From assembly GCA_964635955.1 (NCBI GenBank), contig CAZWQW010000001.1, positions 95,491-143,574 of the forward strand: a DNA stretch of 48,084 nucleotides, given 5' to 3'. Position numbers and translations under genes: made by a program. The stretch is from an uncultured bacterium (GTDB lineage Bacteria > Latescibacterota > MWCZ01). Positions 989-29,028 of the stretch are shown here, in pieces; within the stretch, counting starts at the first letter, position 1, and the number at the start of each line of letters is the position of its first letter. The notes below the pieces were generated by a model. It saw only the letters and a list, made by a program, of their open reading frames with translations. It was not told the DNA's origin and searched no databases.

Positions 989-1924
989 CTACCGACTAAG
1001 TAACTTGCCAAGCACGCGCGCTGCGCGTTCGCGTACGAGTACGTCTGGATCCGTTTCGGCAAGTTCCATGAGTCCCGGAAGGTCATCCGGTGACGCCGAT
1101 TCGGATATCGCTTCCAATCCGAATACCTTGTCTGCCGCGTTACGTGTCATCAGTATATTGAGAAAGCCTGTCGAATCGTACTGGTATCGTTTCGACAGCA
1201 CGTTCTGAATCTGAGCGCTGTATTGTTCCGGTCCGATCCATTTAGCTTGCGCATCGAATATCAGCGCCCACACGCGGTGGTCGTTCCAGTTCTCCAGCAT
1301 TCGCGCGATATCCGCTCGAACGAGCCAATTACTCTCCTCGAGTAGCGTTTCGCTGACGATCTCGTACCACGCATCCGGACGAGGATTTCGCATTCCCGAA
1401 AGCGCGCGGATACGTTCTTTTATAGCAATCGACTTCAACGCGTAATCTCGCATGAGCGTCGTCTGCGTATCGTCGTTCGAAACGCTGAGACGACGTATTG
1501 TAGCGACCGCCTCCGAATCACCAATCCACCCGAGCGCCTGTAACGCCGACAGCCTCTCATCATGCGAACCTGTGCGTACCCATTCCATCAGTACGGGAAC
1601 GCTCTCTGACGAACCGATTTGCCCGAGTAACGTGATAATCTGAGGACGAAGTTCCGCCGACGAGTGCGCACGTTGAGTTAGCGCGATTACGATAAAATGC
1701 AGGTCGCGCGCCGAGTAAAGCTGCCGTTCTGATCGTTCGCGCACGCGGTCGAACGCCGTATCGAATACTTCAGCGTTTCCGTGCATAAGATCGTTCAGAA
1801 GCGGTTGTAAATAATCTGGCGGCAACGATTGTTGTGCATAGACATGAAGAGGCGTCAGGGCAAGGAATCCGAAGAACACCCACATCCACCGTCGGTACCG
1901 TCGCGGCGACGCGAAACGGTTCAT
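989..1924 (-). CDS. Secreted HEAT/PBS-lyase-repeat protein, last gene of the Bat super-operon
   Basis: Signal peptide WMWVFFGFLALTPLHVYAQQ. HEAT-like repeats such as SESVPVLMEWVRTGSHDERLSALQALGWIGDSEAV. Its start overlaps the BatE-like stop by 1 nt. Confidence 0.7.
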   Translation of the reverse strand: MNRFASPRRYRRWMWVFFGFLALTPLHVYAQQSLPPDYLQPLLNDLMHGNAEVFDTAFDRVRERSERQLYSARDLHFIVIALTQRAHSSAELRPQIITLLGQIGSSESVPVLMEWVRTGSHDERLSALQALGWIGDSEAVATIRRLSVSNDDTQTTLMRDYALKSIAIKERIRALSGMRNPRPDAWYEIVSETLLEESNWLVRADIARMLENWNDHRVWALIFDAQAKWIGPEQYSAQIQNVLSKRYQYDSTGFLNILMTRNAADKVFGLEAISESASPDDLPGLMELAETDPDVLVRERAARVLGKLLSR

Positions 1925-2781
1925 TATATCACCTCAATGACGCGACTCGGTATCCAACCACGCATGCCACTCGGGAGTTCGATCAACGTCCAGGAATCTT
2001 CAACTCGCTCAATCCAAACTTTCGTGCCTTCATGGAGCACGAACGCAACTTTTGCGTTTGAACCTGGTTCGAACCGCGCTTCTGCCTCCGCGCTAAGTAC
2101 GATCGCAGCCGCCCCCGTATCGTCTACGATACGTTGAATACCTACGACTCCCAAAGACGTCACAAGCAGAAATCCGGCGACAATCATCGCGAGGACTGTC
2201 TTTCTCGACTTACGTCCACCGTAAACCCACCACGCGCTGACGAAACACACGCCGATGAATCCCGAAGCAAACCCGAGTGCGAGAATATTCGCGCGAATTC
2301 TTCCTACCGCGTCTCGTAACGTGCTGACGAGCTTGAACTCCGCATTCTCATCGGTCACTCGGTCTACGACGAGCAACGACGCGAATTCGAGATTATTCCT
2401 CGCATCTTCGTTCGCCGGATTCAACCGAACTGCACGCTCGTAGTTGAGTATCGATTGCCCCGTACGTCCGAGCCGAAACCACGCATTCGCGAGGTTGTAG
2501 TACACGGCGCTATTTCTCGCACCCAGATCCAACGCTCGCTGATACCATTCCGTCGCTTCGACAAAGTCGCCTCGTCGGTACGAATCGTTTCCGTGGTTGT
2601 AACACGTCGCAGCCGAATCAGCGGCATACCCCGAAGTCGAAACATGCGATCCCGTTTGTACTTGCGCGTGTGTAGAGATGAAACAGCATAGCACTCCCAA
2701 CGCGATCGTGAGAGGCGCTATCATTCGTATTTGGACCAGACTTGTTCCGCGATGCATATACCGGAATACCTCATTTATCAC
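1924..2781 (-). CDS. batE: BatE-like TPR plus C-terminal SH3b membrane protein
   Basis: TPR repeats (GDFVEATEWYQRALDLGARNSAVYYNLANAWFRLGR), a TM segment, and a C-terminal SH3-like region KVWIERVEDSWTLIELPSGMRGWIP. The start is uncertain: GTG 2781, or ATG 2757 or 2724. Confidence 0.75.
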   Translation of the reverse strand: MINEVFRYMHRGTSLVQIRMIAPLTIALGVLCCFISTHAQVQTGSHVSTSGYAADSAATCYNHGNDSYRRGDFVEATEWYQRALDLGARNSAVYYNLANAWFRLGRTGQSILNYERAVRLNPANEDARNNLEFASLLVVDRVTDENAEFKLVSTLRDAVGRIRANILALGFASGFIGVCFVSAWWVYGGRKSRKTVLAMIVAGFLLVTSLGVVGIQRIVDDTGAAAIVLSAEAEARFEPGSNAKVAFVLHEGTKVWIERVEDSWTLIELPSGMRGWIPSRVIEVI

Positions 2782-4597
2782 TGAGATGTTTTACAAGATC
2801 ACTCAAAACGTCACGACCATCAGAGAACACACGTTCCGCTTCTTCTTTAGAAAGCGTCGACGGTGCATATCGCACACGATCAATTGTCGATAGCAACTCA
2901 ACCGTCCGATTGATGAGTTCGTCTGGAACGTTCTTACCCGCGAGCAGGTCGTGAACTTCCCGCGTCGTTATACTCCCTGCGCGAACATTTGAATGTCCTG
3001 CGATAAGCTCCGAAAGCGCTGTACGGACTGCGCCGATCGACTCAGGATAGCTTCCCTGATCAAGTAGGCTGCGCGCGCGCTTCATTCGTCGCCGAGCCTC
3101 GCCTCGCGCTTCGATTGCACGGATTCGCTCTGGATCACGACCAAGACGTTCTCTCCGAACTCGAGCGCCGAGCGCGACGAGAAAAACGACGAATGCGCCG
3201 ATCTGCACGAACCAATATGACATCGAATGCCATAGTGTACGCGATTCATCTGTAAGGACTGCTTGATCGGGCATGATAAAACGAATATCGGTTCCGACTT
3301 GCCGTATTTGCGACTGCGTAAGCGCAAGCGCCTGATGAGCGCCATCTATGTCACGCGGTCGAACAGTGAGATCGTGCCGCTGAGAAACGGCAGTTCGGTA
3401 TTGTTTCGCTATCGGGTCAAAAAACACGAAAGACGCCGACGGGATGCTGACCCGTCCCGAATGAAGCGGTACAAGGATTCTCTCGTACGACCGCACACCG
3501 CCGTACGTCTGCTCCGACGCTTTGATCTCAGTCGTCACTTGGGGATCGTACGCGCGAAATTCGTTTAAGGCTGGTATGCGAATCTCACCAGCGCTCTTAA
3601 TATTCCCCTCGCCTTCAAGAATGACTCGCCACGTTATTGGATCACCTTGTGTGACGGTATCCTGATCGATGGAACTCCGCACCGAATAGCGTCCCACAGC
3701 ACCCTGAAACCCCGATGGTGCACCCGGTGGTAGCGAGCGCACGCGGATGATACGTACGTCTGATCTAACATGGGCCGTTCGTTGATCATATAACGCTTCA
3801 CCCCAGAAGCTTCGCCGGCCCGTCGGAACCGCTATTGTAGCGGAAAACGCCATCTCAGGAATCCGAAGCTCACCGGCCTTCGTCGGAATTAGAGCAACTC
3901 GAAGAATCGGGAGCACTCGCCTGCGTACTCCGTTTTCGACGTGCTCCCGCGACGGGCTTTGGTCCTCGCGCGCGTCAAAAAGCTTCTCCACCCACGCCGA
4001 TGTAAACTCCGGCTCTTGGGTAATCACACGACTCGAGACGCTGACCCCAATCGATTCAACAAGCGAATACTCAACGATTACCGCTTCACCTTGATACACT
4101 GTATCCGCACTTACCGTGACGTTTACTTCGATTTCCGGAGCTTGCTGCCTCTTGCTCTCGGAGGGTGCCGATCCGCCCACCGTAAGAGATATCGGCTGAG
4201 TCTGATAGGTCTTACCCGAGACTTTGACATCGATCGCGGGAATCTGATACTCACCGGGTTCGCGCGGTATGATGTAAAACGTATACGACGTCGTGGCTTT
4301 TTGCGCCGCACGTCCCTGAATGAATTGAAATTCGCGCGATGTCGATGGACCGAACGGACCGCGAATGTCAAGATTCGGCACCGTCGAGATAACAGGGGTT
4401 GCGACATCGTGTCCGCGTTCATCGGTTACAGACAGTGTAAGGGCGGCTTGCTCGCCAACAGACAGCGTGTTGCGATTGACCGTCGCTTCGACTGACGGTT
4501 CGGCGAATACATTGGATCCACAAAACAACATCGCCAGAATCGCAACGATTACGATCTCGCTGTTCCTATTCCGGATATGGTGCGACACGCTCACCAC
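2771..4597 (-). CDS. batD: BatD-family protein (multi-domain, oxygen-tolerance type)
   Basis: 608 aa. It has a signal peptide, repeated beta-rich BatD-type modules, a late TM (WFVQIGAFVVFLVALGA), and a helical tail with the motif LLSTIDRVRYAP. GTG start overlaps the upstream stop. Confidence 0.8.
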   Translation of the reverse strand: MVSVSHHIRNRNSEIVIVAILAMLFCGSNVFAEPSVEATVNRNTLSVGEQAALTLSVTDERGHDVATPVISTVPNLDIRGPFGPSTSREFQFIQGRAAQKATTSYTFYIIPREPGEYQIPAIDVKVSGKTYQTQPISLTVGGSAPSESKRQQAPEIEVNVTVSADTVYQGEAVIVEYSLVESIGVSVSSRVITQEPEFTSAWVEKLFDAREDQSPSREHVENGVRRRVLPILRVALIPTKAGELRIPEMAFSATIAVPTGRRSFWGEALYDQRTAHVRSDVRIIRVRSLPPGAPSGFQGAVGRYSVRSSIDQDTVTQGDPITWRVILEGEGNIKSAGEIRIPALNEFRAYDPQVTTEIKASEQTYGGVRSYERILVPLHSGRVSIPSASFVFFDPIAKQYRTAVSQRHDLTVRPRDIDGAHQALALTQSQIRQVGTDIRFIMPDQAVLTDESRTLWHSMSYWFVQIGAFVVFLVALGARVRRERLGRDPERIRAIEARGEARRRMKRARSLLDQGSYPESIGAVRTALSELIAGHSNVRAGSITTREVHDLLAGKNVPDELINRTVELLSTIDRVRYAPSTLSKEEAERVFSDGRDVLSDLVKHLSDK

Positions 4598-5166
4598 CGT
4601 GGACCTCGCGACCCACCCTGCTTGTGCGGACGAACCTGCGGTGTTTTTTCCTGTGCCTCGAGGGCGTCGAGAAGCCGAATCGCCTCTTCCTGCGTCATTT
4701 CGTCTTCGGAGCGATTCCCAGGCGGCGCGGCTTGCTCGGATTCCCGCTCCTCGGGTTGCTCGATACGGTCGTCTCGCTCTGACGCTTCTTCGTCATCGGG
4801 CTCGTCGCCGGTCTGCTCATCGGTGTCAGGAGGTTGACTCTGTTCATCCTGCTGCTGTTCTTGCTGCTGATCGATGTGTTGTTGACCTTCCTGTCGCTCC
4901 TGCTCTTCTCGCTCTGACCGGCGCCGCTGGATCGCCTCAGCCAGCTGTTGAGCCTCCCGATTGGATGGGTCTTCCGCCAAGGCTTCTGCGAGATGGCGGA
5001 GCGCCAGCTCCTCCGATGCGGAATCGAACTGAATCGCGCTGAACAGCCCAGCGGCATCGACGACCAGCGAATCAGATCGGTTCGTGTCAGCGTACGCTTG
5101 TCCCCACACAAGTAGCAGCACGGTTACACCGTAAGCGACGGAGTGTCTTGTCACGTGGCGTATCAC
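4591..5166 (-). CDS. Membrane-anchored acidic Gln/Glu/Asp-rich low-complexity protein (split BatC-tail-like)
   Basis: N-terminal anchor VAYGVTVLLLVWGQAYA, then about 90 aa of EREEQERQEGQQHIDQQQEQQQDEQSQPPDTDEQTGDEPDDEE, then MTQEEAIRLLDALEAQEK. ATGA overlap with the BatC stop. Confidence 0.7.
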   Translation of the reverse strand: MIRHVTRHSVAYGVTVLLLVWGQAYADTNRSDSLVVDAAGLFSAIQFDSASEELALRHLAEALAEDPSNREAQQLAEAIQRRRSEREEQERQEGQQHIDQQQEQQQDEQSQPPDTDEQTGDEPDDEEASERDDRIEQPEERESEQAAPPGNRSEDEMTQEEAIRLLDALEAQEKTPQVRPHKQGGSRGPRW

Positions 5167-5828
5167 GATCCGCCCTCGAAGATCAACGCAAGATCGCTGA
5201 GTCGCTCGATGAAGTCGCTGTACTCTTCAGCCGCCGCCTGTTCAGCTTCGACAGTCCGACGCATCAGGCGGAAAGCATCTGTATATCGGCGCTGACGAGC
5301 GAGCGCTTCTGCTTCGCGGGCACGTTGCTTCGCCCATTCGCTTACGTTACGTTGCTCCTGTCGTTGTTGACCATATTCTGATGCCGCTTGGTTGAGAAGG
5401 AGTTGAACGATCTCGAGGTTGTGTTTCGCATCCATATCGTTCGGATCGATCTCGAGTGCTCGCTCATAACTCTCCGCTGCTTGTGCGAGTTGTTGTTGCT
5501 TAAACCGTGTATTACCAAGGTTATACAAAGCTTGTGATCGTAAAGCGCTTTGACTCGTGCCGAGTGCTTCGGTAAAAGCCTCCTCGGCTTCGTCGAACTT
5601 TCCGAGTCCGAATAAAGCGCTTCCTATATTCATCGCGATCTGCCTGTCGTTCGGCGCATCGATCTGCGCTTCACGAAACGCCGCGAGCGCTTCGTCGTAC
5701 CGGCCAGATTCGTAGTGTTCGAGACCTTCTCGCACTCGGAGACCCACCGGATCGTACACAGCCTCACACGAGATCAGTCCGCCGGTAACGACGACGACAA
5801 CGAGCGCGAGCCGTACGATGCGACTCAT
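5163..5828 (-). CDS. batC: BatC-like TPR protein
   Basis: Anchor MSRIVRLALVVVVVTGGLISC followed by TPR repeats (YESGRYDEALAAFREAQ, GKFDEAEEAFTEAL, QLAQAAESYERALEIDP). I chose the ATG at 5828 because it gives an ATGA overlap with the batB stop. The track ORF extends to 5906. Confidence 0.75.
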   Translation of the reverse strand: MSRIVRLALVVVVVTGGLISCEAVYDPVGLRVREGLEHYESGRYDEALAAFREAQIDAPNDRQIAMNIGSALFGLGKFDEAEEAFTEALGTSQSALRSQALYNLGNTRFKQQQLAQAAESYERALEIDPNDMDAKHNLEIVQLLLNQAASEYGQQRQEQRNVSEWAKQRAREAEALARQRRYTDAFRLMRRTVEAEQAAAEEYSDFIERLSDLALIFEGGS

Positions 5829-6865
5829 CCTCGGCCTCCCGTGTTGCGTCGCTCCGGTATGAACGGAATGATTACCAGACATATCGCCGCGATGCCGAGT
5901 GGCCACTGGTACCGGTCAACGCGTGTAACAAGCTGCTCTTCCGCTACACGAGCACGTTCCAATTCGTTTATATCGTCGAGAATTCCCTGCAGTTCCCCAC
6001 CTGAACCACCCACTCGAAAGAAGCCACCGTTCGTTTCCGTCGCCACTCTGCGCAACGTCGCATCGTCAAGCCGGGTTTTCACGACGTTTCCCTGATCGTC
6101 TCGTAGATAGTCAGCTCGTCCATCGCGTCGAATCGGTATGAGATCGCCGTCGGGAGAACCGATACCTACCGTGTATATGCGAACCGAGTGCTCCGCTGCT
6201 TTCGATGCGGCACGTAACGCAGCTTCCGTATCGTGCGACTCCCCGTCGGTAAACACGATCATTGCGCGACTACGACCGTCCGCGTCTTCGAAAAACGCTT
6301 TCAGCCCGGTCTCGATTGCGCGTGCCATGTCCGTTCCTTCATCGGGTACGGTGCCGACGTTGATTTCCCGAAGAAACATTCGTATTGCGGAATAATCGAC
6401 GGTGAGCGGACACTGGACAAACGCGGAACCCGCAAACGGAACAAGCGCGACTCGATCACCCGTCAATCGATTTACAAACTGAGAAACCTCGTGCTTTGCC
6501 GCTGCAAGACGGTTCGGCGCGATATCTTCGGCAAGCATCGAAAGCGACGTGTCGAGAAGGATTACCAGATCGAGCCCCTTTGTCTCGACAATCTGCGTAA
6601 CGCTTCCCCATTGCGGTCGTGCCGCGGCGAGCGTAGCCCACGTAACCGCGCATGCGAGAAGCACCGTGCGAAGCCAACGAAAGCCTGCACTCATATTCGA
6701 TGTAAGTTGACCGAGTAATCCCAGATTCCCGAGACGCGCAAGCGACTTCCGGCGACGCAGCTGCGCCCATCCGAGCAACATCGGAAGTACGGGAACGAGC
6801 AAAAGCAACCAGAGCCGCTCGGGCTCTGCCCACATGGTCGTAAGTGTACCGAGGACAGCATTCAT
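5825..6865 (-). CDS. batB: BatB-like VWA-domain membrane protein
   Basis: N-terminal TMs, VWA MIDAS motif DLVILLDTSLSM, and a C-terminal TM. TAATG overlap with the batA stop. Confidence 0.85.
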   Translation of the reverse strand: MNAVLGTLTTMWAEPERLWLLLLVPVLPMLLGWAQLRRRKSLARLGNLGLLGQLTSNMSAGFRWLRTVLLACAVTWATLAAARPQWGSVTQIVETKGLDLVILLDTSLSMLAEDIAPNRLAAAKHEVSQFVNRLTGDRVALVPFAGSAFVQCPLTVDYSAIRMFLREINVGTVPDEGTDMARAIETGLKAFFEDADGRSRAMIVFTDGESHDTEAALRAASKAAEHSVRIYTVGIGSPDGDLIPIRRDGRADYLRDDQGNVVKTRLDDATLRRVATETNGGFFRVGGSGGELQGILDDINELERARVAEEQLVTRVDRYQWPLGIAAICLVIIPFIPERRNTGGRG

Positions 6866-7878
6866 TACGGAGTCGTCCGGAACACCGTTTGCGCAAGTGC
6901 AAACTGCAACACGAGGAAAACAATACCGAGTACTATCAGATGATACGAGAACGTGAGATCCGTGTAGCGCGGAATCTGAACAGTTTCGATCTCCGTACGT
7001 TCGAGTTCATTAATACGCTCGTAGATCTCTGTAAGAGTCGAGACAGAAGTGGCTCGGAAGAACTGCCCTCCCGTAATGCTGGCGATTTCGCGGAGGATTT
7101 CCTCATTGAGCGTGTCTTCCATGAACTCGACTCGCTCACCAAAAAACGGATCGCGTACTCTTATCGGGGCACGTCCGTGAACGCCTACCCCGACAGTATA
7201 GACCTTCACGCCAACTTGCTTCGCCGCCTGAGCTGCTGTTACCGGATCGATGATGCCGGCGTTGTTGCTCCCATCGGTCAGCAGAATAAGCACCTTACTC
7301 TTCGCTTCACTATGGCGAAGACGGTTCGTTGCGGTTGCTATAGCCATACCGATCGCCGTGCCATCAGGGATGGTACTTCCCATGGTAATGGAAACGTTCT
7401 GAAGAAGGACACGTAGGATTCGGTAATCAACAGTCAACGGGCACTGGAGATAGCTTTCACCGGCGAAAACAACCATACCGATACGATCCGCTTTGCGCTC
7501 CATTACGAATCGTTCGACAACCTCTTTCGCTGCGTCGAGGCGTTCTCTGTCACCGAGATCATACGCGCGCATACTCCCCGATACATCGAGGACCAGCATG
7601 ATATCGATACCTTCGCTTACAACACGCTCCAGTACCTCGCCCGATTGCGGTCGTGCAAGGCCAACGATGAGGAACGTTTCTCCAAGGAGAAACAGCGCGA
7701 AGGTAACGTGACGAACCTGAGTACGTACCGACGCGGGTATTGTCCGCGCGAGGTCCGTGCGGGGATAGCGAAGTGCGCCGCAGGAAACGAGATTACCACG
7801 CACGTACCAATAGAGTTGAATCGGTAGCGCAGCAAGCAGAATGAGCCACCACGGACTCACCCAGTGAAACGACGTCAT
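6865..7878 (-). CDS. batA: BatA-like VWA-domain membrane protein
   Basis: WWLILLAALPIQLYWY N-terminal TM, MIDAS motif DIMLVLDVSGSM, LLTDGSNNAG, and a C-terminal TM. Confidence 0.85.
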   Translation of the reverse strand: MTSFHWVSPWWLILLAALPIQLYWYVRGNLVSCGALRYPRTDLARTIPASVRTQVRHVTFALFLLGETFLIVGLARPQSGEVLERVVSEGIDIMLVLDVSGSMRAYDLGDRERLDAAKEVVERFVMERKADRIGMVVFAGESYLQCPLTVDYRILRVLLQNVSITMGSTIPDGTAIGMAIATATNRLRHSEAKSKVLILLTDGSNNAGIIDPVTAAQAAKQVGVKVYTVGVGVHGRAPIRVRDPFFGERVEFMEDTLNEEILREIASITGGQFFRATSVSTLTEIYERINELERTEIETVQIPRYTDLTFSYHLIVLGIVFLVLQFALAQTVFRTTP

Positions 7879-8891
7879 GAGTCTCCCTCCGCCGTTTCAT
7901 CTGGTGTTACCTTAGCGGCTTCTTCGAGCGCTGTCGAAGTTGACAGCGTCCGCGTCGATGTTACAACATCCTTCGCTCGTTCGATGAGCGACCGAACTTC
8001 TTCGTCGTCAGGTATGAACTTCGCGAACTTCACGAGATCGCATCGTTCCAGAAACGCGAGAATTTCGCTTGATTCGTCTGGTGCTACACCGTTATCCAAA
8101 AACGCGAACCGAATCTCATCTACAGTCATTTCCAGAGCGGCAATGCGGTACCGTCGCGACACATACCTTCGCATCTGGTCAGAGACCGCGTCGTAGAATC
8201 CTGCGACGTCATTCCGTGAGAGATATTCGTCGAGTCGTATTCGGTCGAACTCCGCAAGTTCATCGATGACAACGGGGCGTCGATCCACTTTCGTCTTACG
8301 CCGCCTACGAGCGAGCCAAATCAACAGCGCAATGCCCAATGCGACAGCAAACGCTGTCGCGAATATCAGATTGCGAACCCATGGTCGTAATCGGACAGGA
8401 ACACTTTTCGGTGGCTTGAGACCCCGTAGCGAGTCCGCCGCGGTAACGCCGAGACTGACAATCTCTACGGTAAGCGATTGCGTGGTAAGCTCGCCACTGT
8501 CACCGGAAGCTGTCCAGTATCGAACAGGTAAGGGCGGAATGATGTAGGTGCCGGGTTTGAATGCGGTGATCCGATAGCGACCGCCCTGAACGATGGTTCC
8601 ATCGCTCATTTCGCTCGTTGTTGGAACGTAATCGAGAATGCGAAAGGCGTGCAGGTTGATGCCGTGCGGCGGTATGAGGACCGAGTCGTCTTTATTGTGC
8701 ACGACTCGTACTTCGTAGGAAAAGCGATCTCCGACATAGCCGGAGGTCGTGTCGACGGAGGCGGACACCTCGATTCGTGCGACTGCCGGTACGGTCGACG
8801 CAAGGATCGCCCATACGAGTGCGATCCTGCGCACGACCGCGCCTCGTTTCATTCCAACAAACCGCTCATCGACGTACCCCGGTTCGTTCAT
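7875..8891 (-). CDS. BatD/DUF4381-like single-module paralog
   Basis: Signal peptide, one beta-rich BatD-type module, TM plus RRRRKTK stop-transfer, and a helical tail with FLERCDLVKFAKF. The ATG at 8852 is an alternative start. Confidence 0.7.
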   Translation of the reverse strand: MNEPGYVDERFVGMKRGAVVRRIALVWAILASTVPAVARIEVSASVDTTSGYVGDRFSYEVRVVHNKDDSVLIPPHGINLHAFRILDYVPTTSEMSDGTIVQGGRYRITAFKPGTYIIPPLPVRYWTASGDSGELTTQSLTVEIVSLGVTAADSLRGLKPPKSVPVRLRPWVRNLIFATAFAVALGIALLIWLARRRRKTKVDRRPVVIDELAEFDRIRLDEYLSRNDVAGFYDAVSDQMRRYVSRRYRIAALEMTVDEIRFAFLDNGVAPDESSEILAFLERCDLVKFAKFIPDDEEVRSLIERAKDVVTSTRTLSTSTALEEAAKVTPDETAEGDS

Positions 8892-8915
8892 CGTCCGAAA
8901 CTGTACACAGTGACA

Positions 8916-10298
8916 TCATCGACGAATTGTCGGTGCCGGCTCGTCGAATTCATCGATTGTCGGATTGAGTCTGGTGAAGAGCTCGCGGTTCACGAGGACG
9001 ATCTCGTCGACATCCGAACCGGTGGCGTATACTTTATCCCCACGGAACTCGCCAAACGAAATCGATGCGTGTAATGAATCCGCACCGAAAAGCTCGATCT
9101 TGAGGCGTGGTTTCGTTAAATCCCCACGCCGACCGGTAAACTCTGTGGTGCGAGCCATATCAATGTCGGCGATCAAATGATTCACGCGAGCACGGAAAGC
9201 CGATTGCTCACGCGGAGACCACATGCGCCATAACCCCTGCTCGTTCCGCGAAAGCCGTATCAAGCCGTTCGGACCAGCGATGGCAACACTGTCAATATCG
9301 CGACGTTCGAACATGGCAATGCGACGGTCCCAGAAATTCGCCGTTTCGCGATCCAACGCAAAGAGAACATCCATCGGGAGCTGCATTACCGAGTTCTGCC
9401 GCTCATCGTCCATACCCCAAATACCGATATATCCAGAGCCCGCAAGCGCCGGAACCAATGTACCGATACGAAGACGGTATGTCCTCACGGAATCGTCTTC
9501 GTTTGAAGCCGTTAGAACGACTTCCGCACGTGACGGCTCACCGAGTCCGAAGAACGCCGGCTCTCTCTCGGGATGGTCAAAGAAACGATCAACTCGCTGA
9601 TCGGCGAAAACCTTGAGGAAACGAGCCACCGTGTCGGCATCCGCATAGCGGTCAACGGGCTCAACCATACGCCAACGTCTACCTTGGCGTTCGATCCTCA
9701 TCACATCATTGCCGCGCCGAATACGTAACTCTGTGATTGGTTCTTGCAGATAGTCTTCAAATATCCACTTGTACCGAAGCGCATGAAGCGTAACGAGCAC
9801 ACTCTGGTGCACAGCGATGTTCGTAACGATCACCGAATCCGAACCCGCAAACCGAACGTATCCGAGCTTTTCGTTCGGTGTCGGTCCACCGACAAGTAAC
9901 GTCTCTGCCGGCATCGACTTGTCGCGAAACGTGTAAATCATCGTCGCATTCGGATACCGTAGCGTGTAATACCGCAGGCTATCCTCATTCGCGAGGAAGG
10001 TGCGTTCACGTAACGAAGTCCGGAGATTCTGAACAATCAACTCCCAGTTTCGCGGATCACCTCTCCATTCGACCGGCTCGACGATTCGCCAAAGCGAATC
10101 ACCGAAGCTCACCGCTCTGATGGTATCGATATCAGTCATGATCGTGAGTGTATCGATACCGTCACGCGCGACTCGAACAAGTCGAAGATCGGGACGGCTC
10201 TTTCTCTCGATATCGTCGAGGTGACGCTCGCCGTAGAACACCCATAGCCCAAGAATCAGTGCGAGCGCCACCAACACGATTGTTCGAATCCACTTCAT
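8916..10298 (-). CDS. DUF4340-like protein (usual partner of GldG-type ABC accessory proteins)
   Basis: 460 aa. It has a single N-terminal TM (IRTIVLVALALILGLWVFY) and a repetitive beta-rich body. Its position directly after a GldG-like gene matches the usual partnership. The family assignment is from memory. Confidence 0.65.
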   Translation of the reverse strand: MKWIRTIVLVALALILGLWVFYGERHLDDIERKSRPDLRLVRVARDGIDTLTIMTDIDTIRAVSFGDSLWRIVEPVEWRGDPRNWELIVQNLRTSLRERTFLANEDSLRYYTLRYPNATMIYTFRDKSMPAETLLVGGPTPNEKLGYVRFAGSDSVIVTNIAVHQSVLVTLHALRYKWIFEDYLQEPITELRIRRGNDVMRIERQGRRWRMVEPVDRYADADTVARFLKVFADQRVDRFFDHPEREPAFFGLGEPSRAEVVLTASNEDDSVRTYRLRIGTLVPALAGSGYIGIWGMDDERQNSVMQLPMDVLFALDRETANFWDRRIAMFERRDIDSVAIAGPNGLIRLSRNEQGLWRMWSPREQSAFRARVNHLIADIDMARTTEFTGRRGDLTKPRLKIELFGADSLHASISFGEFRGDKVYATGSDVDEIVLVNRELFTRLNPTIDEFDEPAPTIRR

Positions 10299-10341: not shown

Positions 10342-12111
10342 TCAGACCGTTTTTGTGGGTGTCGGACCGCGACTCCGTCGGTACCACCAAATGAGCATAC
10401 CAATCACCAGAACAAACGCCGGGAACCGCCACACCGAGAACAGGAAGATAAACGTGCTCTGCGCGCGCGTGAGACGAAGCGGTTTGTATCCGGGTTCACG
10501 TGGTTGTATCGCGATGAGGCTTTGATCTTCCGCAAGCCAGTTCACGGCATTCAAGCCGAGAGTCAGGTTTCCCTGTTCTTGGCCGACACCACGGTCGGTA
10601 ATGAAATCCGAATCGCCGAACACGACGATACGAGTCTGAGCGTCTTCAGGTGTGAGTGGATCTGTCGCAGGCGCCGTAAGCGCGACACCGACCGGGAACG
10701 GTCCAGTTCGGTCGTCTGCCGGAGAGAAGGTCTGTCGCGGGTTCGTCAGTAACTCACCGACATCCTCCGTCACCAGCGCGAGGCGCGAACCCGCATGGAC
10801 GATCGATCCTCCTGTCGCATCTCGAAGCTCAGGCCGTGTCGGCCCTCGCCATTGAACTTCACGCGCAAGATAGAATCCGGTAGCGACACCGCGTTCGTGG
10901 AGATCGATAACGATTGGATCTTCCGCGTATTCAGTTGCACGAGCGTATACCGACTGCTGCTCGCCCATATAGTAGCCACCGGAACGTGGCACAAGCCCTC
11001 TCTGTCGCTCAATAATAGCATTCGGAAGCACCTTCGCGCCAAAGCGAGAGAGCAGATCCTCAATACCGACTTGTACCGTGTCGGGATCGAGCATGACGAG
11101 AAGCTTGTTTCCGCGTGCGACGAAATCTTCAATACGCTCGATTTCTACCGGAGCGAATGGCGCTCGCGGTCCAATAACCGCGAAAACGGAGGCGTCCAAC
11201 GGGATATCTTCCTCAGTCAGCTGCCACGGTTCTACTTTGTAATTGAGCTGTTCAAGACTCGATACGAACTGCGAGAGATCGCCGTCGAGGGAACGCTCAC
11301 CGTGCCAACTGCTAAAGTAGATCACCGATGTTCCGGGACGCGTAACTTTGATGAGTGCGCTCGTGAGATCACGCTCGTACGGTCCAGGTACAAGCTCCCG
11401 ACGTCCAGTTTCGCTCTTCAGTACAACCATTGGCGTCGATTGGATGTTCTCCTGTCGAGCAACATCGGGATATTTGTCGGGATCGACCATTTCAAACGTG
11501 AAATACGGTGTTATCTCCGTGTATCTCCGGAGTAGTTCCGCGTAACTATTGCGGCTCGGATGGTCGTCGCGGAAAAACGCGATTGCGTGTACGTTACTCT
11601 CGAGACCGCGGAGCTTTGTCGTGGTCTGTTCTGCCAGGCTTTCCAGTTGCGCTTGAGTGAGATCCCACCGTTGCCGCACATGTCGGGACGCGATGTAATT
11701 CACCATTACGACTACTGCAAGCCCGGCGACAACGTATACCCAAACATTCGCACCTTCAGAACTCGCCCGACCGCGGAGCATCGTAAAAATACCCACTGCG
11801 ACGGTGCCGATCGTCAATACGAGGAACCCGGCGATCGAACCAACGTGGCTAAGCTTGATTCCACCGATCTCGAACCCGAAGACTCCTACCAACGCGAGGA
11901 GTACAATCGTAACACCGACTGATACGGCCGTCCCAAATCGCGGAGTGCGTCCGATGCGCATGAAGAACGCACCGGCAAGGAATGCTGTACCCAGCGCCCA
12001 TGGGATTCCCCACGACCACATCGGTGCGTTAGCCACCCACGCGGTGATACCGTCTACAGCGAGTAGCAGTCCGACAAGGCCAATGACGGAAAGAGGAATT
12101 GAGCGAATCAT
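10342..12111 (-). CDS. GldG-like ABC-transporter auxiliary protein with a polytopic N-terminal extension
   Basis: About 5 predicted TMs in the first ~145 aa. An ABC_transp_aux-like region follows, starting RQRWDLTQAQLESLAEQTTTKLRGLESNVHAIAFF, with a C-terminal TM FIFLFSVWRFPAFVLVIGMLIWWY. It abuts the permease stop with a 0-nt gap. Confidence 0.7.
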   Translation of the reverse strand: MIRSIPLSVIGLVGLLLAVDGITAWVANAPMWSWGIPWALGTAFLAGAFFMRIGRTPRFGTAVSVGVTIVLLALVGVFGFEIGGIKLSHVGSIAGFLVLTIGTVAVGIFTMLRGRASSEGANVWVYVVAGLAVVVMVNYIASRHVRQRWDLTQAQLESLAEQTTTKLRGLESNVHAIAFFRDDHPSRNSYAELLRRYTEITPYFTFEMVDPDKYPDVARQENIQSTPMVVLKSETGRRELVPGPYERDLTSALIKVTRPGTSVIYFSSWHGERSLDGDLSQFVSSLEQLNYKVEPWQLTEEDIPLDASVFAVIGPRAPFAPVEIERIEDFVARGNKLLVMLDPDTVQVGIEDLLSRFGAKVLPNAIIERQRGLVPRSGGYYMGEQQSVYARATEYAEDPIVIDLHERGVATGFYLAREVQWRGPTRPELRDATGGSIVHAGSRLALVTEDVGELLTNPRQTFSPADDRTGPFPVGVALTAPATDPLTPEDAQTRIVVFGDSDFITDRGVGQEQGNLTLGLNAVNWLAEDQSLIAIQPREPGYKPLRLTRAQSTFIFLFSVWRFPAFVLVIGMLIWWYRRSRGPTPTKTV

Positions 12112-12939
12112 CTATGCCCTCCACCGTCGAGATTCTAAGACTCGGTTTGTCACGAACAACATGAATCCGATAAATGTGACGTAGTACAGGATGTCGCGTA
12201 ACCGAATCACGCCTGCGAGAAACCCTTCGACGTGACCGGATACCGAGAGGTACCGCAAAAACTCGCCCGCTGCGAAGTTCCCGACATAACTCGCCGCTGC
12301 CGCGATCGAAACGAAAAACAGGATCAGACTGAAGCTAATCACTGCGCTAATGATCTGGTTTTCCGTTAGCGACGACGAAAAGAGTCCGACACTGATAAAC
12401 GTCGCACCGAGAAGGTAGATACCGAAATAACTCGATATCAAAAGTCCCGTATCAGGTCCGACGCCACTTTCAGCGTACCAATATGCAATCGCTGGGAATA
12501 CGAGCGATACGACGATAATCGCTGTCCACAGCGCGAGCGCACCGAGGTACTTGCCAAGAAGTATGCCTGTGGTCGTAGTGGGCGACGTCCACATGAGTTC
12601 AATCGTGCCGCTGCGGTACTCCTCGGAAAACGTCCGCATGGTGAGGATTGGGATGATAAACGTGAGCAAAAACGTCATCGTACCGTATGTGCGACGTACG
12701 ACGATCTGATCGATGTTCGGTGGCGGAGGAGGTTGCGGCGCTTGCATACCCATCTGCGACATGGCGTGAATCTGCTGCAGGCGCAACGGGTACTCTCGCG
12801 TATAGCGGTTCAGATGATTCATTGACTCCTGAAAGAAGTAGCCGGTGAGGATCAGGAACACGAACGCCATCACATACGCCATCGGCGAGTGCAGGTACCC
12901 CCGGACCTCCTTGAGAAAGATGCTCCATGCTCCATTCAT
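12112..12939 (-). CDS. ABC-2 type transporter permease (GldF-like)
   Basis: 275 aa with six hydrophobic segments. The N-terminus IFLKEVRGYLHSPMAYVMAFVFLILTGYFF is typical of ABC-2 permeases. 4-nt overlap with the ATPase stop. Confidence 0.8.
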   Translation of the reverse strand: MNGAWSIFLKEVRGYLHSPMAYVMAFVFLILTGYFFQESMNHLNRYTREYPLRLQQIHAMSQMGMQAPQPPPPPNIDQIVVRRTYGTMTFLLTFIIPILTMRTFSEEYRSGTIELMWTSPTTTTGILLGKYLGALALWTAIIVVSLVFPAIAYWYAESGVGPDTGLLISSYFGIYLLGATFISVGLFSSSLTENQIISAVISFSLILFFVSIAAAASYVGNFAAGEFLRYLSVSGHVEGFLAGVIRLRDILYYVTFIGFMLFVTNRVLESRRWRA

Positions 12940-13700
12940 ACAGCCTGCTCCTCGCGAGAATCGACAGTCGACGACTCTGTATCATCGCGCTGTCCGCTGA
13001 TTACGCGCATGAAGACCTCTTCGAGTGACGTGTTACCTTCTTTACGAATCTCATCCAGCGTTTCGACCAATCGGATTCGCCCTTCGTGGATGATCGCCAC
13101 GGAATCGCACGTCACGCTCACTTCTGGCAGGATATGCGTACTGAGGATGACTGTGTGCTCCCCGCCAAATCCCTTGATGAGTTCACGTATCTCGATAATC
13201 TGCGCAGGATCAAGCCCGATTGTCGGCTCATCGAGAATAAGTACGTCTGGTTCGTGTACGATAGCTTGCGCCAACCCTGTCCGTTGACGGTACCCCTTCG
13301 ACAACGTCCCGATAAGCTGTTTCCGACGATTTTCCAAACCGCATCGTTCAATCGCGAGATCGATTGCCGCACGACGCCGATTCCGCGGTACACGCTTTAA
13401 CTGCGCTGCGAACTCGACGTATTCGCTCACGGTCATGTCATTATATAGCGGCGGGTTTTCGGGAAGGTATCCGAGGCGCTTCCGGACCTCCATCGATTGT
13501 TCCTGCACATCGAACCCGGAAACACGAGCGGTGCCTTCCGTCGGTGGAAGAAAGCACGTCAAGATGCGCATGGTCGTTGTCTTCCCTGCGCCGTTCGGTC
13601 CGAGAAAACCGAGAATTTGCCCGGTCTCCACGCGGAACGTGACGTTGTTCACTGCCGTGAAGTCGCCGTATCTCTTTGTCAAACCATCGACTTCAATCAA
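12936..13700 (-). CDS. ABC transporter ATP-binding protein (GldA-like)
   Basis: Walker A GPNGAGKTT, signature LSKGYRQR, Walker B VLILDEPT. TTG start lies 8 nt after GGAGGA. Confidence 0.9.
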   Translation of the reverse strand: MIEVDGLTKRYGDFTAVNNVTFRVETGQILGFLGPNGAGKTTTMRILTCFLPPTEGTARVSGFDVQEQSMEVRKRLGYLPENPPLYNDMTVSEYVEFAAQLKRVPRNRRRAAIDLAIERCGLENRRKQLIGTLSKGYRQRTGLAQAIVHEPDVLILDEPTIGLDPAQIIEIRELIKGFGGEHTVILSTHILPEVSVTCDSVAIIHEGRIRLVETLDEIRKEGNTSLEEVFMRVISGQRDDTESSTVDSREEQAV

Positions 13701-13826
13701 CGCACGTATCCTCCTCGTTATGCCACACTCATTTTGCCGATTCGTATGCCGCGAAACTCACAAAAGCGACTCTTTACGGTACCCGTTCAGAATCGTGCAG
13801 ACGAATCGACAGGCATTTTGTTCCAT

Positions 13827-14924
13827 TTACATCCGATTTGACCGTGACGTAAAGAATCGCACAAGGGGATCGACATACGACGCCGACGTCGAGATATCGA
13901 CGAGATCGACACCGGTCGATCGAAACACTCGAGTGCGTTCGACATCGACTACATCGGTGCGACGTTCATACATTCGACGGAATATCGGATCCGATGTATC
14001 GACTACGGCTTGCTCACCCGACTCTGGATCCTCAACCGAAAGCAGTCCGACAGGCGGAAGCGCTTCTTCTCTCGGATCGGTTATTCGAATTGCGACCAGA
14101 TCATGTCGCTTCCGGGCTATTCGCAATGGCTTTTCGAAATCGCTCGCTTCGAAGTCACTCACAAGAAACACGATTCCACGCCGCGTTGTTATCCTGTTGA
14201 GAAAATCAAGTGCTTGCGCGATATCGGTTTTTCGCCCTTCAGACGGTTTTGAAGAACGAAAACACGTTCGTCCAATCAACCCAAGAAGTCCTACCGCGGC
14301 AGCGACAATTCCGGTCACGATTAACCATGCTAACACCGTCGCTGGAACACCGATCCACGCGATTGCCAATACCGTCGCGAGTAATGTCACGGTCGCCGCG
14401 AAGGCTCCAATAAGCGGATGCGCTCGTTTCCCCGTCGCGTCACCGCCATTCGCGGATAATCCGGCAAACTGTGCAACGAGCTCGCGCACCACGCGGAGAA
14501 CGTGCTTTCGCCCCTTTTTCGGCGGAACGAAACGTTCGATGCGGTCAGTGAATACGATCAAACCGACGCGATCGTTGTTCTTAATCGCGCTGAACGCCAA
14601 CAACGCACAGACCTCGACGGCGATTTCCGACTTCGTCTGCTCGACACTGCCGAACTCACCGGACGAAGAGGCGTCTACCATCAACATGACGGTGAGCTCG
14701 CGCTCCTCGTCGAAGATCTTTACGAACGGTCGCCCCATTCGCGCTGTTACATTCCAGTCGATCGAACGGACATCGTCGCCACGATCGTATTCGCGCACTT
14801 CTGCGAACTCGACTCCTTGACCCTTAAATGCTGAATGGTATTCACCACTCAGAACAGTGTTTACCACGTGCCGAGTGCGCAATTCGATGCGCCGGACCTT
14901 TTTGAGAATCTCCTTCGGCAGCAT
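13827..14924 (-). CDS. DUF58 (MoxR-associated VWA-like) protein with an inserted two-helix membrane hairpin
   Basis: Canonical DUF58 blocks are present: SGEYHSAFKGQGVEFAEVREYDRGDDVRSIDWNVTAR, ERELTVMLMVDASSS, NNDRVGLIVF. Residues ~155-230 contain LIGAFAATVTLLATVLAIAWIGV and VLAWLIVTGIVAAAVGLLGLIG. Confidence 0.85.
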   Translation of the reverse strand: MLPKEILKKVRRIELRTRHVVNTVLSGEYHSAFKGQGVEFAEVREYDRGDDVRSIDWNVTARMGRPFVKIFDEERELTVMLMVDASSSGEFGSVEQTKSEIAVEVCALLAFSAIKNNDRVGLIVFTDRIERFVPPKKGRKHVLRVVRELVAQFAGLSANGGDATGKRAHPLIGAFAATVTLLATVLAIAWIGVPATVLAWLIVTGIVAAAVGLLGLIGRTCFRSSKPSEGRKTDIAQALDFLNRITTRRGIVFLVSDFEASDFEKPLRIARKRHDLVAIRITDPREEALPPVGLLSVEDPESGEQAVVDTSDPIFRRMYERRTDVVDVERTRVFRSTGVDLVDISTSASYVDPLVRFFTSRSNRM

Positions 14925-14930
14925 GGAAGT

Positions 14931-15926
14931 TTAAGGCACTTCGATCGTGTCGAATATGCGACGAACAATGTCCTCGCTCGTCGTGTCTTCCGCCTCGGCC
15001 TCGTACGTCGGAATTACTCGATGGCGTAACACATCGACACCGATCGCCTTTACGTCTTCTGGTGTCACATACCCGCGTCTCCGAAGAAACGCGTGCGCCT
15101 TCGCCGCCATTGTCAGCCATATCGTCGCGCGTGGTGACGCACCGTATTCGATGAGGTCGGTCAATTCTGTAAGGCCGTAATCCACTGGTTTCCGTGTTGC
15201 GAATACAAGATCGATCACGTAGTCCTTGATCTTCTCGTCGACGTAAACTTGGCGAACAAGCGATCTCGCGCGCACGATGTCTGATGGTGTAATGAGCTTC
15301 TTCGCCACGGGTACAGACTCTTCGGTCATCCGGTCAAGTATCTGCCGTTCTTCTGCTTTACTCGGATACCCCACAACGACCTTAAGCATGAAGCGATCGA
15401 CCTGCGCTTCCGGAAGCGGATACGTGCCTTCCTGTTCGATTGGGTTCTGCGTCGCAAGTACGAGGAACGGATTATCGAGGGGAAAGGTCTCCTCACCGAT
15501 CGTCACCTGATGTTCCTGCATCGCTTCGAGCATCGCACTCTGCACCTTGGCAGGCGCACGGTTCACCTCGTCGGCAAGGACGACATTCGCGAATATCGGA
15601 CCCTTTTTTACGGTGAACTTTCCAACGTGCTGATCGTAAATCAGCGTTCCGATGACGTCAGCGGGGAGAAGATCGGGTGTAAACTGGATGCGTTGAAAGC
15701 GTGCATCGATTGTGTGCGCGAGGGTGCTAACGGCGAGAGTCTTCGCCAGCCCTGGAACACCCTCGAGAAGGATATGCCCGTCGCAAAACAACCCAATAAG
15801 GAGACGTTCAACCATAGTGCGCTGACCGACGATCACCGTTCCAATCTCGGCCAACACGCGCTCGACAAACGCACTTTCTTCCCGAATCAATTCGTTTGTG
15901 CGTTCAATATCTACGTTACCCGACAT
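14931..15926 (-). CDS. moxR: MoxR-family AAA+ ATPase
   Basis: Walker A LLEGVPGLAKT, Walker B VLADEVNRA. 331 aa, with the typical MoxR C-terminal lid. Confidence 0.92.
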   Translation of the reverse strand: MSGNVDIERTNELIREESAFVERVLAEIGTVIVGQRTMVERLLIGLFCDGHILLEGVPGLAKTLAVSTLAHTIDARFQRIQFTPDLLPADVIGTLIYDQHVGKFTVKKGPIFANVVLADEVNRAPAKVQSAMLEAMQEHQVTIGEETFPLDNPFLVLATQNPIEQEGTYPLPEAQVDRFMLKVVVGYPSKAEERQILDRMTEESVPVAKKLITPSDIVRARSLVRQVYVDEKIKDYVIDLVFATRKPVDYGLTELTDLIEYGASPRATIWLTMAAKAHAFLRRRGYVTPEDVKAIGVDVLRHRVIPTYEAEAEDTTSEDIVRRIFDTIEVP

Positions 15927-16839
15927 TGCGCTCCTCTCGAATCAGCATCGCCGCAAAGCGCAACAAGGTTTCTGCTCCCATCATCTCGTTTGAATCAACG
16001 CTTTTTTGCTCCGCGGCATATCGTCGACAATCGAGGTTGTGTAAAAGGTTCACGTACGCAGTCTGCTCGCTCTCGTCGAGTGACGCGGTCTCAACCACGT
16101 GGAGGAGCTCGTCAGCGCTCATTCCGTCGGTGCGGATACCGAATCTCAACGCAACGATACTGCGTAACGCTGCGAACACACCGTCATAAAACGCCAACGT
16201 ATCACCCGATTCCCGCGCCTGACGAATAATGTTGAGTTCCTCGGCTAACTTCCGATCGCCCGCCAGTATTCGCTCTTGCCGTCTTCGAGTTCTTCGTCTT
16301 GTTCGTACACGAATCCACCCGGCGACGACAACGACGATGACGAGTGCAACGCTACCATAGATGACCTGCGACCAACGAAAACGTCCCGTTTTCGTACCGC
16401 GTACCACTTCGACTGGAACCGGTGCCGTGCTGATTCTCCGCGAACTACCAGTCACCGCGTCTCTGACAACGGTTTCCACTACTCCGACGTGCGCAACGCC
16501 GATTCGTTCCGGCGCGACGATCCACGAAAACGTCTGACGCGTTTTCTGTATTCCGTCCTCGACCCACGATGCGGTTTCCTGCCTACTTCCAACGACACGC
16601 AACCCGTCGAGCGACGGATTCTCCGGCCAGGCCGCGATGTACCGATCCGCCGCTCCTGTCCACTCGACCGTTACATCGACGCGTGTACGTCCGTCGAATG
16701 CCACAGGTGATTGACTGAGTTCCGCGACGATTGAGACCTCGTTGGATGTCACCGCCGCGTTCGCGGAAGCGTCACAACCGAGGAACAATAATAGAGCAAG
16801 CGGAAGTAGGACTGAGTACCGGTACTGGCGCGCGTTCAT
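15916..16839 (-). CDS. BatD/DUF4381-like lipoprotein paralog
   Basis: Lipobox LLFLGC, one beta-rich module, TM plus RTRRRTRRRQ, and a helical tail with LLHNLDCRRYAA. 11-nt overlap with the moxR start. Confidence 0.7.
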   Translation of the reverse strand: MNARQYRYSVLLPLALLLFLGCDASANAAVTSNEVSIVAELSQSPVAFDGRTRVDVTVEWTGAADRYIAAWPENPSLDGLRVVGSRQETASWVEDGIQKTRQTFSWIVAPERIGVAHVGVVETVVRDAVTGSSRRISTAPVPVEVVRGTKTGRFRWSQVIYGSVALVIVVVVAGWIRVRTRRRTRRRQERILAGDRKLAEELNIIRQARESGDTLAFYDGVFAALRSIVALRFGIRTDGMSADELLHVVETASLDESEQTAYVNLLHNLDCRRYAAEQKSVDSNEMMGAETLLRFAAMLIREERNVG

Positions 16840-16860
16840 TGGGATACGCCCCCGACGGCG

Positions 16861-17400
16861 TCAATCAACGGTATTCGCGGACGCTCGCGGTGCATCGTCG
16901 CCGTACGGTACCGGCCAGTCTTGAATGGGGCGACCGATATTCTCCAATAGCCACTTCGCCGATCCGCCGGTCACGAACTCGTGTTCAGGAAACTCTCGAA
17001 TGAGTCGCTCGTACGCGGCGCGCGCACGATTGAAATCGTTCAATCCTTCGTAGATGTGACCCGCGAGAATCAGACTCTTTGCGCGGAACGAGCTCGTGGA
17101 ATACTCGCGTAGCAGCCGAAGGTAGTTTTGTGCCGCGTCGCGATGGTCACCTTTGATCTCTTGGAGAGTCGCGAGCATGAAAAGAGCGCTGTCGGCGTTT
17201 TCATGGTGAGGATGGCGATCAAGGAAAAGGCCGAGGCTTGCGATACCTTTGCTGATCTTCGCCTCGTTCAACGCCGGATCCGCTCCGAGGTTGTTCATGG
17301 CATCCGCGCCGTCTTTTAGAAGGCGATCGGGACCGTTAGAGCACGCGGCAAAGACAATAACGCTTGCCACAATAGCCAAGCCGGTAAAAAACCGTCGCAT
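16861..17400 (-). CDS. TPR lipoprotein (YbgF/BamD-like fold), first gene of the super-operon
   Basis: ATG at 17400 follows GAGAGGA. Lipobox VIVFAAC. TPR-like helices include DHRDAAQNYLRLLREYSTSSF and NDFNRARAAYERLIREFPEHEF. Confidence 0.7.
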   Translation of the reverse strand: MRRFFTGLAIVASVIVFAACSNGPDRLLKDGADAMNNLGADPALNEAKISKGIASLGLFLDRHPHHENADSALFMLATLQEIKGDHRDAAQNYLRLLREYSTSSFRAKSLILAGHIYEGLNDFNRARAAYERLIREFPEHEFVTGGSAKWLLENIGRPIQDWPVPYGDDAPRASANTVD

Positions 17401-29019: not shown

Positions 29020-29028
29020 CAGCCGCTA

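Follow-up and report, generated by a model that had tools for sequence, protein, structure and literature searches.

Why does the Bat operon of an uncultured bacterium carry the genes of an ATP-binding cassette (ABC) transporter in its middle? The locus lies at positions 989-17400 of a 48,084-nucleotide (nt) stretch of DNA, hereafter the window, from a member of the Latescibacterota (GTDB lineage MWCZ01; assembly GCA_964635955.1, contig CAZWQW010000001.1, forward-strand positions 95,491 to 143,574). To our knowledge, no function has been agreed for the Bat operon since 1999. The locus is a chromosomal envelope-gene cluster in which a four-gene GldA/F/G-like ABC-2 module has been captured into a Bat operon of the Fibrobacterota-Chlorobiota-Bacteroidota (FCB) type. 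The module sits between the cytoplasmic MoxR/DUF58 part of the operon and its membrane and periplasmic VWA/TPR part, and has stayed there by inheritance in deeply diverged relatives. We consider the best explanation overall to be that the captured exporter and the Bat products work in one envelope pathway, to which we assign a probability of roughly 0.6.

The cluster is an uninterrupted run of 16 open reading frames (ORFs), all on the minus strand, to which the coordinates of all cluster features below refer. We number the genes G1 to G16 from the upstream end; the longest-ORF run begins at 17460, and GC content is even across the region (0.53-0.56). For start sites we relied on ribosome-binding sites and on the genes called in a 98%-identical contig, L003. 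Ten junctions then overlap or abut: G2/3 (-11 nt), G5/6 (-4), G6/7 (0), G9/10 (-4), G10/11 (-1), G11/12 (-4), G12/13 (-4), G13/14 (-7), G14/15 (-11, which becomes +13 nt if G15 uses its ATG start) and G15/16 (-1). The other five junctions are gaps of 21, 6, 126, 43 and 24 nt, the widest falling between DUF58 and the ABC ATPase. An initial annotation, made from the DNA alone, had likewise counted 16 genes on one strand and ten overlapping or abutting junctions, and both counts are confirmed. Every one of its gene labels is backed by Pfam profiles, and a profile hidden Markov model check of the Bat and GldG/DUF4340 assignments, set beforehand, upheld them. Its start for G1 at 17400 is most likely right, although the longest ORF reaches 17460; its start for G12 (5906) had to be moved to 5828. 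We found no sigma-70-like promoter or convincing terminator inside the cluster, where the sigma-70 consensus may not be that of the host phylum, and Rfam and tRNA scans gave no match inside it.

The embedded module consists of four adjacent genes on one strand, all above Pfam gathering cut-offs and separated by -4, 0 and 43 nt. The first, G5 (12936-13700), encodes a GldA-like ABC ATPase of 254 amino acids (aa) that matches ABC_tran at 110 bits and has intact Walker A and Walker B motifs. It is followed by G6 (12112-12939), a GldF-like ABC-2 permease of 275 aa (ABC2_membrane_2) whose sole NCBIfam match is GldF. G7 (10342-12111) encodes a GldG-like auxiliary protein of 589 aa with an ABC_transp_aux/GIFT domain (74 bits against a cut-off of 34.7) and a DUF7088 domain; a transmembrane (TM) scan finds additional TM segments at the N-terminus and a TM anchor at the C-terminus. 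The last gene, G8 (8916-10298), encodes a 460-aa DUF4340 protein (91 bits) with an N-terminal TM helix and tandem beta/alpha modules. An AlphaFold2 model of this protein (mean predicted local distance difference test score 82) has the TM helix followed by three to four such modules. In a Foldseek search against the PDB, the DUF4340 protein resembled sliding clamps (E ~3e-5, TM-scores 0.11-0.17); we take this as a likeness of domain topology only and draw no function from it. A sequence search of solved structures drew a blank for DUF4340 and BatD and gave no more than a faint IFT52 match for GldG.

Upstream of the module, MoxR adjoins DUF58, as is typical of Bat operons, here with a gap of 6 nt. 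This pair is separated from the DUF4381-like and BatA genes by ~5 kb holding the four module genes. Past the module, the order BatC (TPR), BatD, BatE is retained, with an acidic protein inserted between BatC and BatD. A topology scan based on simple hydrophobicity and lipobox searches predicts a signal peptide, lipobox or TM segment in nearly all products except MoxR and the ABC ATPase, which are cytoplasmic. It identifies G1, G2 and G12 as lipoproteins, G13-G16 as secreted or membrane-anchored, BatA and BatB as membrane VWA proteins, and GldG and DUF4340 as membrane-anchored proteins with large external domains. The catalytic and metal-binding motifs are intact, with MoxR retaining Walker A, the ABC ATPase retaining both Walker A and Walker B, and DUF58, BatA and BatB retaining the metal ion-dependent adhesion site (MIDAS) motif DxSxS.

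What did the operon look like before the module arrived? As outgroups we took the Bat operons of the closest MoxR relatives that carry NCBI labels other than Latescibacteria. The non-fused operons of KSB1 and Calditrichota already carry an upstream TPR lipoprotein gene and a small BatD gene, so the novelty of the window lies elsewhere. Its TPR lipoprotein and its two BatD-like lipoproteins are ordinary components of the FCB Bat operon type. A further gene, here called X, encodes a TPR/SurA_N_3-like protein and lies between DUF58 and the ABC ATPase in two relatives of the window (L006, 12200-13105; L008, 12244-13173; 301-309 aa). Homologues of 260-309 aa also come next after DUF58 in KSB1, in Calditrichota and in some Latescibacteria-type loci, which marks X as an ancestral gene that the window's sub-lineage has lost. 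The ancestral order is therefore TPR lipoprotein, small BatD, MoxR, DUF58, X, DUF4381-like, BatA, BatB, BatC, BatD and BatE. In the window and in L005, X is gone and a spacer of 126-133 nt remains. The window's 126-nt spacer (13701-13826) marks the module's upstream border and the former site of X, and is the largest gap of the cluster. Compared with L005, it is unconserved apart from a ribosome-binding site and a TTG start. We considered an internal terminator or promoter in this spacer and rejected it: the fold is not significant (no terminator-like structure, z = -1.5), the spacer contains no consensus promoter, and it is not conserved in L005.

The window's arrangement, with the ABC module between DUF58 and the DUF4381-like and BatA genes, recurs in related contigs that each span different portions of the cluster. 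We call this arrangement variant A. Across variant A, MoxR identity to the window is 75-100% and DUF4340 identity 28-98%. The closest contigs, L003 and L004, are 98-100% identical to the window. Identity then falls through L001 and L005 (GldG 61%, DUF4340 50%), a JGI contig (DUF4340 45%) and L006/L007 (GldG 54%, DUF4340 33%) to L008 (GldG 43%, DUF4340 28%). L006/L007 belong to a metagenome-assembled genome (MAG; GCA_022706085.1 for L007) that encodes the MoxR protein P0045, labelled Candidatus Latescibacteria at NCBI, and also shares the upstream synteny (GFO_IDH, FGE-sulfatase, TatC, PdxJ, SecDF and a Zn-ribbon gene). These matches place the window in a Latescibacteria-type genome.

Variant A is further marked by two membrane insertions. 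Its DUF58 protein contains an insert of ~70-95 aa (~nt 14220-14447 in the window) that forms a hairpin of two hydrophobic helices and is missing from variants B and C, described below, and from the non-fused relatives. In the other loci compared, DUF58 has no TM segment, and the hairpin would tether this normally soluble VWA-like protein to the membrane. In alignments, the extra N-terminal membrane block of GldG is likewise confined to variant A. Variant A alone therefore has both the DUF58 hairpin and the additional GldG segments.

To look beyond these relatives, we scanned metagenome contigs with a diverse GldG alignment and kept the best 80 loci, whose GldG proteins are 27-35% identical to that of the window. 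Their six-frame ORFs were searched with the window proteins by phmmer. Eight of these loci (L014, L016, L022, L032, L044, L054, L063 and L079) have the window's order and form variant B. L054 and L079 span the whole arrangement, from TPR-MoxR-DUF58 over the ABC module through BatA-E, and each domain of L054 was confirmed by Pfam. In variant B, the GldG-like protein is ~1,090 aa long, with the ABC_transp_aux/GIFT domain present twice (L054, 9761-13033; also L016, L022, L032, L044 and L079). The module borders are tight, with gaps of 28-78 nt on the upstream side and -4 to +7 nt on the downstream side. A scan of a genome collection with a DUF4340 alignment matched one locus only and was unusable as a survey.

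Two more of the 80 loci, L031 and L074, have a different order that we call variant C: ClpB, TPR lipoprotein, MoxR, DUF58, DUF4381-like, ABC ATPase, permease, GldG, DUF4340. The ABC ATPase gene follows its predecessor at +2 or -4 nt. No BatA-E genes were found in the downstream sequence at hand (~0.8 kb in L031, 2.9 kb in L074). Exact MoxR matches carry the NCBI names Gemmatimonadota for L079, Latescibacteria and Handelsmanbacteria for L032, and Neomarinimicrobiota for L031. The arrangement thus recurs in several Latescibacteria-type and allied FCB lineages and is not a one-off. As a separate observation, the surroundings of variant C are a protein-quality-control context: ClpB lies directly upstream in both loci (L031, 2051-4663; L074, 5-784), an M48 (HtpX-like) peptidase lies downstream in L074 (9187-10035), and L031 also has an upstream Omp85/POTRA protein.

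How often has the module joined MoxR-DUF58? We aligned the ATPase, permease and GldG proteins (962 columns in all) and built a neighbour-joining tree on simple distances, with 100 bootstraps. Variant A and variant B were each recovered in 100 of 100 replicates, A and B together with L014 in 91, and L031 with L074 in 99, while all fused loci together were recovered in none. For each single gene, too, a clade of all fused loci had 0/50 support. L031 and L074 are placed among stand-alone modules, and by raw identity their nearest relatives are the stand-alone L087 and L090 (48-52%), a closeness similar to that between L031 and L074 themselves (53%). Fused loci are likewise scattered in the MoxR tree, where L074 is sister to a non-fused Gemmatimonadota locus. 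Because variant C falls among stand-alone modules and uses a different insertion junction, these data point to the module having joined MoxR-DUF58 independently at least twice. Variants A and B may stem from one shared capture.

From this pattern of gene neighbourhoods, the linkage of the exporter and Bat genes is real and conserved, and probably functional. Four observations argue for a functional link: the module persists across deep divergence, it is more tightly coupled in variants B and C, it was captured independently, and DUF58 and GldG gained membrane segments in parallel. Under this explanation, the genes would be transcribed together or at least co-regulated, and their products would work together in one inner-membrane and periplasmic pathway. 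MoxR and the VWA-like DUF58 may remodel or load the membrane-anchored VWA/TPR proteins from the cytoplasmic face, with DUF58 held at the membrane by its inserted hairpin in this lineage. The ABC-2 pump, with its large periplasmic GldG and DUF4340 parts, would export a lipid- or glycan-like substrate; alternatively, it would pass the energy of ATP hydrolysis to periplasmic partners. Either way, the pump would serve the same envelope structure as the MoxR/VWA proteins.

Which Bat products might the pump contact? Variant C, which has no BatA-E nearby, points to the MoxR-DUF58-DUF4381-like trio as the direct partner. With the TPR lipoprotein counted in, it is this group, and not BatA-E, that variant C suggests as the pump's direct partner, if there is one. 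The central proposal of the initial annotation, a single envelope machine acting on a common substrate, would be plausible, judging from gene linkage. A stronger form of that proposal, in which MoxR/DUF58, the GldAFG-like pump with GldG and DUF4340, and BatA-E make up one trans-envelope assembly driven by two cytoplasmic ATPases (AAA+ and ABC), seems to us unlikely.

The alternative that survives best is neutral hitch-hiking. Here the module would have landed at a permissive intergenic site and been inherited vertically, sharing at most a promoter with the Bat genes and having a function unrelated to theirs. Several observations weigh in this direction and against a shared pathway. The four outgroups, namely Calditrichota L009, KSB1 L010, Gemmatimonadota L011 and a MAG labelled "Proteobacteria" (L094), all keep contiguous, complete Bat operons without the ABC module, as the initial annotation had described for canonical Bat operons. 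L009 has an NspV-like gene, a small ORF and an N6 methyltransferase-like gene directly after DUF58 (11864-14331), so the post-DUF58 junction tolerates unrelated insertions. In variant A, the module borders coincide with the widest gaps of the cluster (126 nt in the window, 113-145 nt in L006/L008), and these could house internal promoters. The bat genes of Leptospira, operon-like in layout, appear to have independent promoters (PMC3557215). Single-gene support for A, B and L014 together, in these simple-distance neighbour-joining trees, comes mostly from the permease, at 47/50, compared with 21/50 for GldG and 0/50 for the ATPase.

The rarity of the fused form belongs on the same side. Stand-alone modules make up 70 of the best 80 loci, and the distant GldG/DUF4340 homologues L002, L012 and L013 are also stand-alone four-gene modules, which bears out the statement in the initial annotation that such modules normally occur separately. 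An exhaustive search of representatives gave 9,844 GldG-like clusters at 50% identity with E <= 1e-3 (5,182 with E <= 1e-10). Among the best 150 clusters, about three resemble variant A and one resembles variant B, indicating that the fused form is rare within the GldG family. Within the best 80 loci, MoxR/DUF58 lies upstream in 8 of the 36 with enough flank and BatA/B/D downstream in 4 of 32. These fractions are inflated because the ranking used similarity to the window protein and one clade contributes many of the loci, and we therefore reject the 22% (8/36) as an estimate of frequency. Clade-level synteny alone can also mimic association: Peptidase_S13, the commonest family flanking stand-alone modules, accounts for 8 of their 146 flanking ORFs. 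Chaperone genes neighbour the first three stand-alone modules (GrpE-DnaJ, HSP20 with GroES-GroEL, or DnaJ in L002, L012 and L013). Chaperone adjacency was dropped as a candidate association, since no chaperone family is among the 25 most frequent Pfam families in the 146 ORFs flanking the 70 stand-alone loci.

Against hitch-hiking stand the two independent captures beside MoxR-DUF58 with differing gene orders, and an arrangement held down to 28% DUF4340 identity. The near-zero or overlapping borders of variants B and C argue in the same way, as do the parallel membrane-segment gains in DUF58 and GldG of variant A. On balance, we regard hitch-hiking as a serious possibility that falls short of being probable, and we favour a shared envelope pathway.

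Could the module instead be a genuine gliding-motility transporter, GldA/GldF/GldG, marking a gliding or type IX secretion apparatus? Its first three proteins do have GldA, GldF and GldG as their best NCBIfam matches (equivalogs TIGR03522, TIGR03518 and TIGR03521). However, all three score far under the equivalog cut-offs, with 296 of 403 bits for G5, 145 of 289 for G6 and 56 of 390 for G7. No gld, spr or type IX secretion family was found among the Pfam-scanned ORFs of the 48-kb window, and modules of this type are widespread in non-gliding phyla. We therefore consider a gliding apparatus very improbable. An assembly chimera or one-off rearrangement of a single MAG is refuted by independent contigs, as the same junctions occur in independent ENA, Logan, JGI and NCBI assemblies and the GC content of the region is uniform.

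The remaining genes of the cluster complete a recognizable Bat operon. G1 (16861-17400) encodes a YfiO-like TPR lipoprotein of 179 aa (TPR_6, TPR_2, TPR_8) whose signal peptide ends in FAAC, and a ribosome-binding site precedes its ATG at 17400. Its homologues hold the equivalent position in variants A, B and C, in KSB1 and in Calditrichota. G2 (15916-16839; 307 aa) is a small BatD-domain lipoprotein, DUF4381-like, that reaches the BatD cut-off exactly (24.1 bits) and matches DUF4381 below cut-off; it has the lipobox FLGC and a central TM helix at residues 158-176, and its homologues lie upstream of MoxR in non-fused KSB1 and Calditrichota operons too. The cytoplasmic MoxR AAA+ ATPase (G3, 14931-15926; 331 aa; AAA_3 at 221 bits, plus AAA_lid_2) has the Walker A motif GVPGLAKT. 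Its closest named proteins are from Candidatus Latescibacteria (75-76% identity), followed by Calditrichota, KSB1 and Gemmatimonadota (70-74%). The VWA-like DUF58 protein (G4, 13827-14924; 365 aa) is matched by its profile in two stretches (266 bits) and has the MIDAS motif DASSS.

A Zn_ribbon_8 (FmdB-like) small protein is encoded just upstream of G1, on the same strand (17487-17753; Pfam E = 3e-17). In L006, L008 and six variant-B loci, a homologue likewise immediately precedes the TPR gene; non-fused KSB1 L010 has one as well, at an upstream distance of ~2.2 kb. This conserved gene may be a 17th member of the cluster, that is, the first gene or regulator of the unit.

Downstream of the module, G9 (7875-8891; 338 aa) encodes a second small BatD-domain, DUF4381-like membrane protein (BatD 27.4 bits, cut-off 24.1; DUF4381 below cut-off) and corresponds to the "small TM" gene before batA. 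Related genes sit before batA in KSB1 and Calditrichota, where identity is 33%, and a more distant relative (27%) does so in Gemmatimonadota. The next two genes encode the membrane VWA proteins BatA (G10, 6865-7878; MIDAS DVSGS) and BatB (G11, 5825-6865; MIDAS DTSLS). Both have VWA above the Pfam cut-off and a BatA N-terminal domain below it (22.8 and 19.2 bits, cut-off 25.9). Their best NCBIfam matches are BatA and BatB, respectively, at scores under the Leptospira-specific cut-offs. G12 (5163-5828; 221 aa) is a BatC-like TPR lipoprotein (TPR_1, TPR_2; lipobox LISC), and its corrected start overlaps the end of G11 by 4 nt.

The acidic protein between BatC and BatD (G13, 4591-5166) is a secreted, low-complexity protein of 191 aa with a signal peptide, a pI of 4.4 and no matching Pfam family. 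Its homologues are found only in L001, L003 and L005, the contigs of L006 and L008 stopping before this position; none was found in KSB1, Calditrichota, Gemmatimonadota or variant-B loci. BatD itself (G14, 2771-4597; 608 aa) has three BatD domains (128 bits in total), a signal peptide and a C-proximal TM helix. The BatE-like G15 (1924-2781) has TPR_11 and TPR_2 repeats, TM helices, and SH3_4 and SH3_3 matches below cut-offs; its probable start is the ATG at 2757. The last gene, G16 (989-1924; 311 aa), encodes a periplasmic HEAT-repeat protein (HEAT_2) with a signal peptide, kept at this place in L001, L003, L005 and the JGI contig. In non-fused Gemmatimonadota L011, two HEAT-repeat proteins and an S41/PDZ peptidase are encoded just upstream of MoxR (6628-9943), echoing the terminal G16 of the window.

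Past G16, the convergent neighbour is a UbiE-type methyltransferase gene (319-975). On the other side of the cluster, the window includes a stretch rich in glycan-degradation genes (22484-35388), which encode an FGE-sulfatase-type enzyme, a GH127-like protein and two GH2 beta-mannosidase-like proteins (814-818 aa) flanking a tyrosyl-tRNA synthetase gene. An H-NOX (haem NO-binding) gene (35444-35965) lies ~4 kb from a gene for a methyl-accepting chemotaxis protein (39980-41206).

How does the cluster compare with known systems? Like the Bat and MoxR-DUF58-VWA operons (batA-E of B. fragilis, bat of Leptospira, BB0170-BB0176 of Borrelia and cmdA-D of Rhizobium), it encodes MoxR, DUF58, a DUF4381-like protein, two VWA proteins, a TPR protein, BatD and a TPR/SH3 BatE in canonical order, and it shares the upstream TPR lipoprotein and small BatD gene with its nearest non-fused relatives in KSB1 and Calditrichota. 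Unlike them, it is interrupted by the ABC-2/GldG/DUF4340 module and has a DUF58 with a TM-hairpin insert. The window's sub-lineage also carries the additional acidic secreted and terminal HEAT proteins and has lost gene X. The module matches Flavobacterium GldA/GldF/GldG and the stand-alone modules in its four domain families and in their order, and its GIFT/ABC_transp_aux domain lies between membrane anchors as in GldG. It differs from them by being embedded in a Bat operon and by missing the equivalog cut-offs. Its ATPase is shorter (254 aa compared with ~313 aa), and its GldG departs from the known type in having an additional membrane block at the N-terminus in variant A and a duplicated domain in variant B.

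NosDFY may offer an analogy, as an ABC-2 system that energises periplasmic partners instead of moving a solute across the membrane. There, too, an ABC-2 ATPase and permease are encoded beside large periplasmic accessories and beside maturation or assembly factors. The likeness is an analogy only, as the window proteins have no sequence relationship to NosD or NosL.

Published work on Bat-type genes fits an envelope role and gives no mechanism. The BatA-like VWA domain of Borrelia has been placed in the periplasm, and MoxR-DUF58-VWA clusters of Rhizobium have been tied to envelope integrity (PMC5700661). Bat-type phenotypes differ among organisms (PMC3557215, PMC5700661). Our full-text literature searches found no description of a Bat operon with an embedded ABC/DUF4340 module, in line with the initial annotation, which knew of no description of the combined architecture. 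None of the papers retrieved for DUF4340 or PF14238 actually named either. The literature searched also gave no known substrate for members of the ABC-2/ABC_transp_aux/DUF4340 module.

Both halves of the cluster, the Bat operon and the GldAFG-type pumps, are widespread and functionally obscure. A linkage that is conserved and has arisen at least twice is therefore a guilt-by-association lead able to direct experiments, a modest clue rather than a demonstrated machine. If the one-assembly proposal were true, the substrate of GldAFG-type pumps and the client of Bat-type MoxR would be the same envelope component. More generally, the linkage predicts that MoxR-DUF58 systems and GldG/DUF4340 pumps would act on the same envelope process.

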